The translations under genes were made by a program, and so were the position numbers. From the NCBI GenBank assembly GCA_966243015.1, contig CBIMES010000001.1:1-48597 (forward strand): DNA of 48,597 bases, read 5' to 3'. Below the pieces are notes generated by a model, which was given only the letters and a program-made list of their open reading frames with translations, did no database searches and had not been told where the DNA came from. Within the stretch, counting starts at the first letter, position 1; the number at the start of each line of letters is the position of its first letter. The DNA comes from an uncultured bacterium (GTDB lineage Bacteria; Patescibacteriota; Minisyncoccia; Phycocordibacterales; UBA6065). Shown one piece after another: positions 1 through 45,828 of this stretch.

Positions 1-1489
1 AGTTTGATCCTAGCTCAGGGTGAACGCTGGCGGCGTGGATAAGGCATGCAAGTCAAGGGGGCCGCAAGGCAACCGGCAAACGAGGTAGTAATAATTAGGT
101 ACGAACCTTCAAGTCGAGCACAGCTCGTCGAAAGACGGGGTAATTCTCGATAGTCCCTCCGGGGTAAAGATTTATCGCTTGAAGATCGGCCTAATCGGTA
201 TCAGCTAGTTGGTAGGGTAATGGCCTACCAAGGCAATGACGCCTAGGGGACCTGAGAGGGTGACCCCCACCGATGGAACTGAGACACGGTCCATACACCT
301 ACGGGTGGCCGCAGTCGAGAATCTTCCGCAATGGACGAAAGTCTGACGGAGCGACGCCGCGTGCAGGATGAAGTCCTTCGGGATGTAAACTGCTTTTATA
401 GGGGAGGAAGTTTATTGACGTTACCCTAAGAATAAGAGGTTGCTAAACTCGTGCCAGCAGCAGCGGTAATACGAGTGCCTCAAGCGTTATCCGGAATCAT
501 TGGGCGTAAAGGGTTTGTAGGTGGTTATGTTAGTCTCCTGTTAAATATCTCGGCTTAACCGGGAAGATGCGGGGGAAACGGCATGACTAGAGGATGCAAG
601 GGGTCTGCGGAACTCATAGTGTAGCGGTGAAATGCGTTGATATTATGGGGAACACCAAAAGCGAAGGCAGCAGACTGGGGCACTCCTGACACTGAAAAAC
701 GAAAGCGTGGGTAGCTAATGGGATTAGATACCCCAGTAGTCCACGCCCTAAACGATCTTCTCTAGCTATTTGGAGTATCGACCCTCTGAGTGGCGTAGCT
801 AACGCGTTAAGAGAAGCGCCTGGGTAGTACGACCGCAAGGTTAAAACTCAAAGGAATAGACGGGGACTCGCACAAGCAGAGGATCATGTGGTTTAATTCG
901 ATGGTAAACGAAGAACCTTACCAGGGTTAGAAATCTAGTTGAAGACAGGGAGAAACCTCTGTCGCCGCAAGGCAATTAGACAGGTGCTGCATGGTCGTCG
1001 TCAGTTCGTGATTTGAATTGTTCCCTTCAGTGGGGTAACGAACGCAACCCTCATTGCCTGTTACAAGTGTCAGGCGAGACTGCCCAGCTTTTAGTCCGTG
1101 AATCGAATGATTCGTTGATTAGAAGCTGGGAGGAAGGTGAGGATGACGCCAGATCAGCATGGCCCTCTGATACCCTGGGCTACACACGTGATACAATGGC
1201 GCGTACAACGCGAAGCGACGGGGACAACCCTGAGCAAATCGTTATAAAGCGCGCCCTAGTTCGGATAGGGGTCTGCAACTCGACCCCTTGAAGCTGGATT
1301 TGCTAGTAATCTCGGGTCAGCCATACCGAGGTGAATACGTTCTCGAGTCTTGTACTCACCGCCCGTCAACTCAAGGGAGTTGGGAGTGCCCGAAGTCCGC
1401 GCTTGTCGCGGCCTAAGGCAAGCTCAATGACAGGGAGTAAGTCGTAACAAGGCACGGGTAGCGGAAGCTGCTCGTGGATTATTTCAAGT
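1..1489 (+). rRNA. rrs: 16S ribosomal RNA, 5' end cut by the window edge (window starts at the 27F site)
   Basis: Starts AGTTTGATCCTAGCTCAG. Contains GTGCCAGCAGCAGCGGTAA (515 region), GGATTAGATACCCCAGTAGTCC (806 region) and AAGTCGTAACAAGG plus a helix-45 hairpin near the end. The 3' boundary (+/-10 nt) was set as GGAT + 10 nt by analogy with E. coli. Confidence 0.97.
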
Positions 1490-1626
1490 GAAAACTGTTT
1501 CTGACCATGTCAGAAACTTACGGAGTCGATCATATTTAATATGGGTTTTGCAGATACCTACAACTGCATGGAGGTCGGGGAAGAACCGGCAACCAGAACG
1601 GAGCAAAGTAGAGGATAGTATGAAGG

Positions 1627-1655
1627 AAAAACCACCCGAAAGGGTGGTTTTTCTA
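1627..1655 (+). terminator. Intrinsic terminator-like hairpin about 140 nt downstream of 16S
   Basis: AAAAACCACCC-GAAA-GGGTGGTTTTT followed by a T-rich tract. Confidence 0.6.
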
Positions 1656-15056: not shown

Positions 15057-15189
15057 ATACGAGCCTCTTGTCAGGGCGGAAAAGGACCGTCTCCGAAGAG
15101 GGTGGTTCTTGCTTTTGTCTGTATGGTGTGATATAATTGATAGCGAAAACCAACCACAACAACTGATATAAAAGGAGGTCCTTTAAAAC

Positions 15190-15675
15190 ATGAAATCTGT
15201 CATTGGCTCGTGGCGTCCGTTTCAGAATGTGTCGAGTCCGGAAATGAGGGGCGTGGCGCTTGGTAAGCTCTTCAAAAACGTTCTCGCGCTTCTTGCCGTC
15301 GTTGCTGCGTCATATTGGGTCTATCGGATAACGATATGGCCCGAACTTGAAGGGAAGATTTTCTGGAGGGCTTGGTCGGCGATCCTCGCATACCTTGCTA
15401 TCCGGAAAGTCCTTCGCTTCGTCTGCCGAGGCTTCTTCGCGTGCACTAACTGCCGCCGTCTCAAGACGGCTCGACACGTGAATCCCGTCGTGGTTTGTGG
15501 CGGCACGGGCTGTCACGAGTGCGCCGAGCTCCAGGAGAGGCTGCGAAAGATCATCGAGGAAGAGCATCAGCATATGGTGGCCATTCAGGCGAAGCCTTTT
15601 CCGGGCGGCGATCCCGTGGGGACCGTCCCGCGCAATCGGCCGACCGTCAGCAGGTTTGCCGCCCATACGGGCTAG
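15190..15675 (+). CDS. Membrane protein with a C-terminal Cys4 zinc-ribbon
   Basis: 161 aa. Two hydrophobic helices, then CTNC...CGGTGCHEC. The only gene in the window with a strong SD-like AAGGAGG upstream. Terminator at 15697-15726. Confidence 0.6.
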   Translation: MKSVIGSWRPFQNVSSPEMRGVALGKLFKNVLALLAVVAASYWVYRITIWPELEGKIFWRAWSAILAYLAIRKVLRFVCRGFFACTNCRRLKTARHVNPVVVCGGTGCHECAELQERLRKIIEEEHQHMVAIQAKPFPGGDPVGTVPRNRPTVSRFAAHTG

Positions 15676-15765: not shown

Positions 15766-17793
15766 ATGAGCCAAATTATGACAAGCGACGACAAAGTCAC
15801 ATATTTCGCCGAGACCGACTCGCGCAACAAGCGGGTCAAGTTCGGCATCAAGGCTAAGGACCGCACCCGACACACCTACGTGATCGGAAAGACGGGAATG
15901 GGTAAGTCGACCCTTCTCGAGAACATGGCAGTGCAGGACATTCAGGGTGGGGAAGGTGTCGCCTTCATCGACCCGCACGGAAAGACCGCCGACCTCCTCC
16001 TCAACTACGTCCCCGAGCATCGCATCAAGGACGTGGTGTACTTCGCGCCGTTCGACACGGACTTCCCGATATCCTTCAACATCATGGAGGACGTTGGCTA
16101 CGATAAGCGACACCTCGTCGTTTCCGGCCTCATGTCCACCTTCAAGAAAATCTGGGTGGACGCATGGTCGGCGCGAATGGAGTACATTCTCTCGAACACG
16201 CTCCTCGCGCTTCTCGAGTATCCTGACGCGACGCTCCTCGGCGTGAACAAGATGCTCGCCGACAAGGAGTATCGCAAGAAGGTCGTCGACAATATCACTG
16301 ACCCCGCAGTGAGGTCTTTCTGGGTGGACGAGTTCGCCAAGTACACCGAGAAGTTCGCCGCAGAGGCGACTCCGGCGATCCAGAACAAGATCGGACAGTT
16401 CACGAACAACCCACTCATCCGAAACATCATCGGCCAGCCGAAGTCGTCGTTCGACATCAGGAAGCTCATGGACGAGAGGAAAATTCTCATCATCAACCTC
16501 TCGAAGGGAAGGGTGGGTGACCAGAACGCGAACCTCCTCGGTTCGATGCTTATCACCAAGATCTACCTCGCGGCAATGTCCCGTGCGGACGTGAGCGAGA
16601 AGGTCATGAAGACGCTCCCTCAGTTCTATCTGTACGTGGACGAGTTCCAGAACTTCGCCAACGAGTCCTTCGCGGATATTCTCTCGGAGGCCCGAAAGTA
16701 CAAACTCAACCTGACCATCGCCCATCAGTACATCGAGCAGATGGAGGAGGAGGTGCGCGCCGCCGTGTTCGGTAACGTGGGTACCATGATCGCGTTCCGC
16801 GTAGGCTCGTACGACGCCGAGATTCTCGAGAAGGAGTTCTCGCCGAAGTTTACTGCGGAGGACATCGTAAACCTGGGATTCGCCCAGATTTATTTGCGTC
16901 TCATGATCGACGGCATCGGCTCGCAGCCGTTCTCGGCAACGACGCTTGGCCCTATCGCTGAGCCTGCGGTCAATTTCGTGCCGCAGATTCTCGAGAGCTC
17001 CCGATCGCAGTTTGCCCAGCCTCGCTCGACGGTCGAGGAGATGATCAAGACGCAGATGGCCGCGACAGTCGCGGCTGCCCCTGCCGGCGGTCCACGATCG
17101 GGCGAGAGGAGGCCGGGTGACAGGCCTGACGCCGCGCACAAGTCGGCGCCCTCTTCTACGGCTCATAACGCGACCCCCGCTGCGCACGGTCCCGCTCATG
17201 CAGCGCCGCACCAGGCACATGCGCCTCAGCCGCGCCGAGACACCCATCTTGCCCAGGCACCGAGCCGAGAGTCCCAGCCTCGTCACGACGCCCCGCGTCC
17301 GAGCGAGCCGCGCCGCGTTGACCTGCATCCAAAGCCCGAGGCGCCGCGAGAGCGTCCCGCTCCTCCCCCCGCTGACGGTTCGGACGGTTTCCAGAGCCTC
17401 AAAGACCTGAAGGCGGTCGTTCAACCTGCCTCGACCTCGTCTTCATCGCCTTCCTCACCGGCGCAGGGCGCAGCCGAGAGGAAAGGGGTCACCGCCGAGA
17501 GCAGGCTCGACCTTCGCGCCGCACTTGCCTCTATTGCGCCGGCTGCTATCGTGAAGCCTACCGCCCAGCCGAAGGCGGAGTCTCCGGCCCCAAAGGCAGA
17601 GACTCCTCCCCAGACGGTAACCGCGCCGACCCCGCCGCCGCAGAAGCCACCCGAGGCCAAGCCGGCGACGCCAGCCGGCCCTCCGCCTGTCGCCCAGAAG
17701 CCCTCGTCCGTGACAGACGTCCCGGTCTCGAAGGAGAGGGAGGGCATAAAGGAGGTTCCCGAGCACGTGCTCAAGAAGATTCTGGAGGTATAA
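15766..17793 (+). CDS. VirD4/TraD-like (type IV coupling protein family, FtsK/HerA superfamily) P-loop ATPase, with no N-terminal TM segment and a long disordered C-terminal tail
   Basis: 675 aa. Walker A GKTGMGKST, FIDPHG, Walker B LYVDEFQNF, and LTIAHQY...GNVGTMIAFRVG blocks. The last ~245 aa are Pro/Ala/His/Gln-rich. Confidence 0.75.
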   Translation: MSQIMTSDDKVTYFAETDSRNKRVKFGIKAKDRTRHTYVIGKTGMGKSTLLENMAVQDIQGGEGVAFIDPHGKTADLLLNYVPEHRIKDVVYFAPFDTDFPISFNIMEDVGYDKRHLVVSGLMSTFKKIWVDAWSARMEYILSNTLLALLEYPDATLLGVNKMLADKEYRKKVVDNITDPAVRSFWVDEFAKYTEKFAAEATPAIQNKIGQFTNNPLIRNIIGQPKSSFDIRKLMDERKILIINLSKGRVGDQNANLLGSMLITKIYLAAMSRADVSEKVMKTLPQFYLYVDEFQNFANESFADILSEARKYKLNLTIAHQYIEQMEEEVRAAVFGNVGTMIAFRVGSYDAEILEKEFSPKFTAEDIVNLGFAQIYLRLMIDGIGSQPFSATTLGPIAEPAVNFVPQILESSRSQFAQPRSTVEEMIKTQMAATVAAAPAGGPRSGERRPGDRPDAAHKSAPSSTAHNATPAAHGPAHAAPHQAHAPQPRRDTHLAQAPSRESQPRHDAPRPSEPRRVDLHPKPEAPRERPAPPPADGSDGFQSLKDLKAVVQPASTSSSSPSSPAQGAAERKGVTAESRLDLRAALASIAPAAIVKPTAQPKAESPAPKAETPPQTVTAPTPPPQKPPEAKPATPAGPPPVAQKPSSVTDVPVSKEREGIKEVPEHVLKKILEV

Positions 17794-26382: not shown

Positions 26383-29821
<3,439 letters not shown>

Positions 29822-32312: not shown

Positions 32313-32335
32313 ACCGACTCTGCTACAATATTAGG

Positions 32336-32839
32336 ATGAAGCACAAAATACTGGCTTTCGTCCTCATTTTTGCTGCCGTGCTCGCGGCAGGGTTCGTGAT
32401 TGCAAAGAAATCAGCGTCCCAGCCTCTTTCTCCGGAGGTGTCTGACGCTCGTTCGCAGGATTCGCTCGATCGTGTCGTCGGAAGGCTCGGCGGCGAGACG
32501 TTCGACATCATGGTTGCCCGTACGGATGTCGAGCAAGAGAGGGGATTGGGAGGATTGGACGGCCTCGCCCCGAACGAGGCGATGATATTTCCGTACGAAA
32601 GGTCTGACTTCTACGGATTCTGGATGAAGGGCATGAAGTTCCCGATTGATATTGTTTGGCTGGACGAGAGTTTTCGTATCGTCCACGTCGAGGGCTCTGT
32701 CGGGGCTGATACGTACCCAAAAATCTACTCTCCGTCGGTGCCCGCACGCTCCGTCATCGAGTTTTCGGCGGGCACGATCGACCGTCTCGGGGTCTCGGTG
32801 GGAAACTTTATCGAAATAGAGGGCGCTCTCGGCCGGTAA
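32336..32839 (+). CDS. DUF192 domain protein with N-terminal signal/anchor
   Basis: 167 aa. MIFPY....FWMKGMKFPIDIVWLD motif of DUF192 (COG1430). TGcTACAAT lies 6 nt upstream of the ATG. Confidence 0.65.
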   Translation: MKHKILAFVLIFAAVLAAGFVIAKKSASQPLSPEVSDARSQDSLDRVVGRLGGETFDIMVARTDVEQERGLGGLDGLAPNEAMIFPYERSDFYGFWMKGMKFPIDIVWLDESFRIVHVEGSVGADTYPKIYSPSVPARSVIEFSAGTIDRLGVSVGNFIEIEGALGR

Positions 32840-37854: not shown

Positions 37855-37859
37855 CAAAA

Positions 37860-38218
37860 CGTGGACCTCAAGACAGCGCCCTGTCGCAAGGCGGGGTGAG
37901 GAAAGTCCGAACACTTGCCGGCCGCAAGGCCGCGCAGCAAGGTAGCGGGTAACGCCCGTCGGGGTAATCCTAGAGGTGCGAACAGAAACGACCGATGCCG
38001 AAAGGCTAGGGGATCCGTCGATCGCAAGGTCTCCGGATCGTTCTCAGGGCAACCTGAGAGTGCAACGGCAAAATCCTTACCCGAGTGCAAGGCCGTGCTC
38101 GAGGCCGCAAGGCTTCGTGAGTGCCGCTCGAGGTGCGTGGCGACACGCATCCCAGATAAATTGTCTTGGCCCGTCCGGCGCAAGCCGGGAGGGAACAGAA
38201 TTCGGCTTATAGTCCACG
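37860..38218 (+). ncRNA. rnpB: RNase P RNA, bacterial type A
   Basis: P1 pairing CGTGGAC/GTCCACG. P4 strands GAGGAAAGTCCGAAC and ACAGAATTCGGCTTAT. GNRA/GCAA-capped helices throughout. Followed by a terminator. Confidence 0.92.
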
Positions 38219-38228
38219 AACAATGATT

Positions 38229-45404: not shown

Positions 45405-45450
45405 GTGATGGACTATGGTTATGGCCTAACGGGAGTTATACTAGCACAGC

Positions 45451-45828
45451 ATGAGAGAATTCCAAGACCGCAGGAGGTTCCGCCGGTTCTTCCACTCCCG
45501 ATACGCGATCGGCGTGCTTATTCTCGTGCTTGTGCTCGCCGCCCAGGCGGTCTGGGGTATATACAACAAGTACCAGAAGAGCGAGGAGCTCTCCCAGAGG
45601 ATGAGCGCCAACCTCTCTGAGCTTCAGGACCGCCGGCAGAAGCTCGTCTCGCTTAACGCCTCCCTCGAGACCGAGCAGGGCAGGGAGCGCGAGATTCGAG
45701 ACAGGTTCGGCGTGGTCAGGGAGGGCGAGCAGACGGTCATTATCGTCGAGAATCGCTCAGGGGACGGCGGAATAACGCCGCTTCCGGAGAGAAGCGTGTG
45801 GCAGGCTTTCCTTGACCTCTTTAGATAG
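45451..45828 (+). CDS. Septum formation initiator family (FtsB/DivIC-like)
   Basis: 125 aa. Basic N-terminus, one TM helix, a coiled-coil, then the IRDRFGVVREGEQVI-type C-terminal motif. Confidence 0.6.
   Translation: MREFQDRRRFRRFFHSRYAIGVLILVLVLAAQAVWGIYNKYQKSEELSQRMSANLSELQDRRQKLVSLNASLETEQGREREIRDRFGVVREGEQTVIIVENRSGDGGITPLPERSVWQAFLDLFR

Follow-up and report, generated by a model that had tools for sequence, protein, structure and literature searches.

A single-copy 16S rRNA without the anti-Shine-Dalgarno sequence in a uL1-lacking genome assigned to the Paceibacteria, and the probable modes of translation initiation

Bacteroidetes and Flavobacteria have few Shine-Dalgarno (SD) motifs, and the regions around their start codons are rich in A, poor in G and weakly folded; Bacteroidetes keep CCUCC in the 16S rRNA, where it is sequestered by ribosomal proteins. 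In bacteria rich in leaderless genes (Actinobacteria and Deinococcus; 'group C' of GeneMarkS-2), such genes have no ribosome-binding site but a -10 box at a constant 6-7 nt from the start codon, and these bacteria keep the anti-SD and use SD motifs on their leadered genes. The mRNAs of mammalian mitochondria are leaderless or nearly so. The small-subunit rRNA of these mitochondria lacks the anti-SD (PMC10582724).

Loss of the anti-SD from Parcubacteria that lack the ribosomal protein uL1 is already published. Tsurumaki, Saito, Tomita and Kanai (2022; RNA 28:1041; PMC9297842) detected the CCTCCT motif in only 48% of Parcubacteria; according to the authors, the lineages without it coincide in part with those that lack uL1, and SD helices presumably do not form in them. 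The portions of that paper accessible to us give motif detection rates only, not the SD usage of each genome, and report no leaderless promoters, no conserved UUCAA tail and no structured trailer. Our literature search found no paper tying Parcubacteria or Patescibacteria to leaderless genes. Since the core fact is published, the DNA described here adds detail rather than a discovery. We analyzed a stretch of 48,597 nt (the window; positions 1 to 48,597 of the forward strand of contig CBIMES010000001.1, assembly GCA_966243015.1) and the genome from which it comes, which has 730,383 bp in four contigs, is 57% GC and is 99.86% complete.

The 16S rRNA has a normal helix 45 and no anti-SD. The gene opens the window, with about 9 nt of its 5' end cut off by the start of the contig. 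A genome-wide search found it in single copy, apart from 31 nt that overlap with it where contig C4 begins. The features of the gene and of the region downstream are as follows.

1-1489, forward strand: 16S rRNA gene (Rfam RF00177, SSU_rRNA_bacteria, 1325.9 bits, model positions 10-1533)
1453-1476, forward strand: helix 45, CACGGGUAGC-GGAA-GCUGCUCGUG, intact (alignment to the Rfam consensus structure)
1477-1494, forward strand: 16S 3' tail, GAUUAUUUCAAGUGAAAA (Rfam end alignment and genus alignment)
1497-1517, forward strand: trailer hairpin 1, GUUUCUGAC-CAU-GUCAGAAAC (predicted fold and genus alignment)
1518-1595, forward strand: rest of the structured 3' trailer, with three more hairpins (predicted fold and genus alignment)
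1596-1628, forward strand: 3' strand of the pre-16S processing stem (co-fold with the 5' leader on contig C4, reverse complement)
1630-1653, forward strand: intrinsic terminator, CCACCC-GAAA-GGGUGG-UUUUU (sequence)

The GGAA loop of helix 45 is the target of the dimethyltransferase RsmA/KsgA. After helix 45, the Rfam end alignment places GAUUAUUUCAAGU where GAUCACCUCCUUA is expected, with GGAUUAUUUCAAGU opposite the consensus GGAUcACCUCCUUu, so that UUUCA (1482-1486) occupies the place of CCUCC. An initial annotation, made from the sequence of the window, had claimed that the tail lacks CCUCC and that no CCTCC follows in the next ~50 nt. Both claims are borne out, and the second extends to the whole trailer: none of CCTCC, CTCC and CCTC occurs in 1477-1660, that is, up to the terminator. 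A helix 45 followed by GATCACCTCC was not found anywhere in the genome. With the anti-SD lost from its 16S rRNA, the ribosome cannot form an SD helix. Elsewhere in the gene, at about 1085-1125, an extra segment, UUUUAGUCCGUGAAUCGAAUGAUUCGUUGAUUAGAA, resembles a CPR-type helix expansion.

The tail is followed by a structured trailer within a processing stem. Between the invariant tail and the stem are ~100 nt (1495-1595) with four predicted hairpins joined by the conserved linkers GUCGAU, UGGA and GGGGAAG. In the genus alignment the hairpin sequences change yet remain self-complementary; hairpin 1, for example, differs in sequence among congeners, and every copy can still form a hairpin. Compensatory changes were found at four of the five pairs of hairpin 4 (1574-1578 paired with 1586-1590) and at 5 of 16 predicted pairs overall (RNAalifold on a MAFFT alignment). 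Hairpin 4 was the only one that RNAalifold recovered with covariation; hairpins 1-3 are misaligned there and were recognized by inspecting the genus alignment. The trailer co-folds with the 5' leader on C4 into a continuous helix of ~33 bp whose sequence is conserved in the genus, and this pairing also shows that C4 and C1 are neighboring contigs that meet at the 5' end of the 16S gene. Rfam detected no other rRNA in the window, and 23S does not follow 16S. Given the ~33-bp stem and the terminator behind it, the 16S gene is transcribed by itself, and its processing stem is of the normal kind. Past the terminator, at about 1710-1738, lies a promoter (TTGACA-17 nt-TATACT); a 97-aa ORF without a Pfam family occupies 1801-2094, and tRNA-Ile(GAU) is encoded separately at 2190-2263; farther along the window is an RNase P RNA of bacterial class A (37858-38224; 107.7 bits against an Rfam cut-off of 100).

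The tail is conserved far beyond this genome. We recovered 16S 3' ends from 15 of the 18 same-genus genomes searched, and the tail was identical in all of them; across 16 aligned genus-level sequences the 18 nt after helix 45 (1477-1494) are invariant and divergence begins directly afterwards. Among the other families of the order with a 16S end, seven of eight read GGAWUNNUUCAA and the eighth reads GGAAUUCUUCCGAAGG. In a scan with one genome per species, GAWUNNUUCAA followed helix 45 in at least 120 species, and nearly all of the matches listed carry Paceibacterota or Parcubacteria names (such as Nomura-, Taylor-, Zambryski-, Adler- and Yonathbacteria), with some generic or doubtful labels. 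From a tail pattern common to at least 120 records so named, the source would be a member of the Parcubacteria/Paceibacteria.

The unusual tail could in principle be an artefact of assembly or binning, a chimeric rrs end that hides a true ribosome with CCUCC. The contig does begin inside the 16S 5' end, and the 31-nt overlap with C4 has one mismatch. However, the 3' end lies well within a 494-kb contig, the leader on C4 pairs with the trailer as the processing stem, the identical tail in the genus comes from 15 independently assembled genomes, the motif recurs in the species scan, and the genome contains no canonical helix 45 plus CCUCC site. This reading is close to refuted, and we give it almost no probability. 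The initial annotation had named a chimeric or mis-assembled rrs end as what would overturn it and had proposed a comparison with other rrs copies and with relatives; the single copy and the conservation of the tail in relatives count against any such error.

Two further ideas about the tail were set aside. A UUCA-loop-UGAA mini-hairpin in or just after the tail has a stem of just 3-5 bp that is invariant in the genus, and we make no structural claim for it. The downstream GAA is very widely conserved, as judged with a search pattern whose 5' arm was fixed beforehand, and one family has UUCC...GGAA. An origin of the tail by deletion of CACCUCCUUUC was prompted by CCUCC-bearing relatives reading ...CCUCCUUUCUAUUCAAG, and could not be decided because only two of the seven sequences of that family show it.

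SD motifs upstream of genes are at chance level in this genome. We called genes with our own caller (a 3-periodic, 5th-order Markov model with greedy selection), which picks starts by coding score and a start-codon prior and is blind to ribosome-binding sites; it called 637 genes, 81% of the genome, with a share of ATG starts that the ATG prior inflates. GGAG, GAGG or AGGA was present in the 17 nt from -20 to -4 in 7.5% of the 637 genes, compared with 7.6-8.1% in composition-matched shuffles and 19% in random or internal windows. The corresponding 5-mers preceded 3.6% of genes, versus 2.9-3.1% in shuffles. There was no positional peak of SD motifs upstream of the called genes genome-wide and no SD enrichment among the genes without the -10 signature described below. 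The mean duplex energy with ACCUCCUUA was -1.2 to -1.5 kcal/mol. Within the window, an SD-like 4-mer fell between -20 and -4 in 3 of the 35 called genes, and none of the 35 had a strong, well-spaced SD.

The same scripts detected SD usage where it was expected. In 150 kb of E. coli K-12, SD motifs were at 47.5% versus 18%, with a peak at -12 to -9 and a duplex energy of -4.65 kcal/mol. Two CPR genomes of other classes, both with a CCUCC tail and each sampled over 200 kb, had SD 5-mers at 17.6% versus 3.7% and, in the one with 63% GC, at 22% versus 8.9%; both had clear SD peaks at -11 to -8. The null result in the source genome is therefore not a failure of the method. Based on the absence of the anti-SD and the chance level of SD motifs, SD-independent initiation is the best reading. 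The initial annotation had pointed to it from the near absence of SD motifs in the window and had suggested comparing SD frequencies genome-wide with shuffled sequence, and computing duplex energies against both the anti-SD and the actual tail; its description of the window holds, the genome-wide frequency does not exceed the shuffles, neither pairing gains support from the energies, and SD-independent initiation is further supported by a loss of the anti-SD that extends across the lineage.

One site in the window does look like an SD, and a small set of genes elsewhere has a similar motif.

15129-15192, forward strand: the sole SD-like site, with an extended -10 box TGATATAAT, a leader, AAGGAGG and an ATG (sequence)
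Uncalled ORFs led by AGGAG: on C1, 197907-198512, 297412-297813, 370178-370570, 370709-370906 and 224420-224674; on C2, 173792-174145; in the window, 15190-15675

The -10 box of the site (15129-15137) is followed by a leader of ~46 nt that contains AAGGAGG at 15172-15178, ending 11 nt before the ATG at 15190, as originally described. The ORF (15190-15675) encodes 161 aa with no Pfam family. The next gene (15778-17793) encodes a 671-aa protein like the TrwB/VirD4/TraG coupling proteins of type IV secretion (Pfam E-values of 1e-5 to 6e-7), and the two together may be a mobile element. In the uncalled ORFs, AGGAG lies 5-10 nt before the ATG, and several share an ACA-rich leader. There were 14 AGGAG-led ATG ORFs in uncalled space versus 0-9 for permuted motifs, a marginal excess, and genome-wide counts of GGAGG- and AGGAG-led ORFs (219 and 238) were not above those of permuted motifs (113-306). 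About 15-20 genes, the ORF at 15190 among them, have a well-placed AGGAG and stand outside what the modes of initiation proposed below explain.

Many start codons are preceded at a fixed distance by a -10 box. The upstream words most enriched were TATACT, TATAAT, TGATAT and GTGATA. The commonest starting positions of TANNNT were -12 (74 genes) and -13 (55-56 genes), where the baseline per position is 8.3, and its excess between -17 and -11 amounted to ~191-194 of 633-637 genes (~30%). The motif carried a TGn extension in 81 of 216 cases (37.5%), compared with ~6% if bases were equally frequent, and the base at -1 was C or T in 88% of genes. Three examples come from the window.

27754-27759, forward strand: leaderless-type promoter, TGaTATACT; the ATG at 27766 follows the -10 box after 6 nt
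32324-32329, forward strand: leaderless-type promoter, TGcTACAAT; the ATG at 32336 follows the -10 box after 6 nt
45437-45442, forward strand: near-leaderless promoter, TATACT; the ATG at 45451 follows after 8 nt

Transcripts that begin at the start codon have as their signature a pyrimidine at -1 and a -10 box whose end is 6-7 nt from the ATG. Its presence, as (TGn)TANNNT, in ~30% of genes implies that these genes have leaderless mRNAs, with start sites that we infer from the position of the box. The signature is limited to roughly one gene in three; in ~217 genes that have a large gap upstream, no strict TANNNT stood at that place, and several genes in the window have -10 boxes 10-25 nt upstream and A/C-rich leaders. 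Among the called genes, the region from -15 to -4 was 38-48% A and 10-16% G. Predicted folding from -30 to +30 was weak, with a minimum free energy of -7.4 kcal/mol versus -15.6 kcal/mol for internal windows (p = 2e-73). Among 491 pairs of same-strand neighbors, the gap was 0-10 nt in 67 and 11-30 nt in 99.

We considered whether initiation as in Bacteroidetes might dominate, with leadered mRNAs loaded through S1 on A-rich leaders and TANNNT acting as a translational A/U element rather than as part of a promoter. The A-rich, G-poor and weakly folded upstream regions, the presence of an S1 protein and the window genes with leaders would all fit. The motif, however, is locked in position at -12 and -13 and matches the -10 consensus TATACT/TATAAT, it has the TGn extension far more often than equal base frequencies would give, and the bases at -1/+1 behind it are a pyrimidine and a purine, an arrangement typical of transcription start sites. 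We consider it improbable that this mode dominates. The leaderless and leadered modes are not mutually exclusive, and we assign the leadered mode to the remaining genes.

We also considered whether the new tail has co-evolved with a new mRNA motif complementary to it, such as UUGAAAUAAUC. The strong conservation of the tail suggests that it has a function, and the duplex energy with UAUUUCAAG was slightly better in the genome than in dinucleotide shuffles (-0.76 vs -0.60). That gain was traced to the words ATAAT and TAATC, which reflect -10 boxes and TAA stops, and it was gone in comparison with mononucleotide shuffles. ACTTG, CTTGA, TTGAA and TGAAA were at or below expectation (4-13 observed vs 11-17 expected), and the 5-mers complementary to the tail had no positional peak and were not among the enriched k-mers. 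Upstream 5-mers complementary to the core UUUCAAGUG were not enriched except for ATAAT, TAATC and AATAA, which are located where -10 boxes and TAA stops lie. No motif complementary to the actual tail was found at a fixed distance from the start codons, and we regard a replacement pairing as very unlikely. Initiation without such pairing, probably on leaderless mRNAs for about 30% of genes rather than for most, is the reading that we prefer.

The genome lacks uL1 and retains several factors that act on the 16S 3' end or in initiation. No match to uL1 (PF00687) was found in the source genome, whereas all 14 control genomes have one, and uL1 was likewise not found in any of five relatives of the order. 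IF3, YbeY and RsmA/KsgA are present, as is a 366-aa protein with three S1 domains. The gene ybeY encodes the 16S 3'-end endonuclease. At C1: 89665-90240, an 87-aa ORF with a sub-threshold match to bS21 (22.8 bits, cut-off 27) stands directly upstream of ybeY. Era was not found above the cut-off in the genome; Era recognizes GAUCACCUCC, and most CPR are without it (PMC10582724; PMC12641178). The source genome, without CCUCC and without uL1, thus belongs with the lineages in which Tsurumaki et al. found the two absences to overlap, and its Paceibacterota-named relatives share the tail.

Relatives that keep the anti-SD suggest an order of events. The 16S ends sampled across the class are of three kinds: canonical (GAUCACCUCCUUUCU), near-canonical (CAUCUCC) and various AU-rich tails. 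One complete, single-contig genome of the same class (G214) keeps the canonical GAUCACCUCCUUUCU tail and has no SD enrichment (8.5% versus 9.8% in shuffles, 293 genes), a TANNNT peak at -12, as in the source genome, and no uL1. Four smaller samples from families with canonical or near-canonical tails (80-116 kb, AT-rich) also had no SD peak, though with only 30-66 called genes each they lend weak support. Taken together with the SD-using CPR outgroups, G214 and the small samples suggest that Paceibacteria had given up SD use by the time the anti-SD decayed, in a sample that is small and in which kinship is not controlled. uL1 is missing from four of the five class relatives sampled, G214 included: from three of the four with an intact CCUCC and from the one with a degenerate CAUCUCC tail. 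In this small sample, loss of uL1 is wider than loss of the anti-SD. We tentatively propose, as a possible course of events with less than even probability, that SD use was dropped first in Paceibacteria, that the unused anti-SD then decayed to AU-rich tails that differ by family, and that in this order the tail (GAWUNNUUCAA, in most cases with GAA after it) and the trailer with its four hairpins came under new selection, perhaps as a processing signal or as a retained 3' extension.

The window very probably carries the intact, single-copy 16S rRNA of a uL1-lacking, anti-SD-less member of the Paceibacteria (Parcubacteria, CPR) that has no SD sites and initiates translation by leaderless, short-leader and close-spacing modes. 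In the leaderless mode, the first transcribed base would be the A of the AUG or lie only a few bases from it, and ribosomes would bind directly to the AUG at the 5' end of the mRNA. On short, A/C-rich, G-poor and weakly folded leaders, the ribosome would load without base-pairing, perhaps aided by the three-domain S1, and close spacing within operons would allow re-initiation. Where transcripts begin, where the mature 16S rRNA ends and which factors take part are deduced here from the genome sequence.

Each of the better known systems shares part of this picture. As in the leaderless-rich bacteria, the -10 box lies 6-7 nt before the start, at start sites that are predicted from sequence in the source genome; unlike those bacteria, the source genome has neither an anti-SD nor SD use on leadered genes. 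It resembles Bacteroidetes in the scarcity of SD motifs and in its A-rich, G-poor, weakly folded start regions, and differs in that Bacteroidetes retain an unused anti-SD whereas here the sequence itself is gone. G214, which has kept CCUCC and has no SD signal, is a closer parallel to Bacteroidetes than the source genome is. Mammalian mitochondria differ in being an organelle system with its own factors, in which the anti-SD was lost independently. Relative to the published loss of the anti-SD in uL1-lacking Parcubacteria, the additions made here are modest: a relative of the same class that keeps CCUCC and does not use SD, and a conserved four-hairpin trailer within the processing stem.

Genome-wide statistics with positive controls confirm that translation in an entire lineage of bacteria does without SD/anti-SD pairing. 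For gene calling, start prediction based on ribosome-binding sites is uninformative here, and the position of the -10 box is informative. The finding matters for the expression of CPR genes in other hosts, or of foreign genes in CPR.
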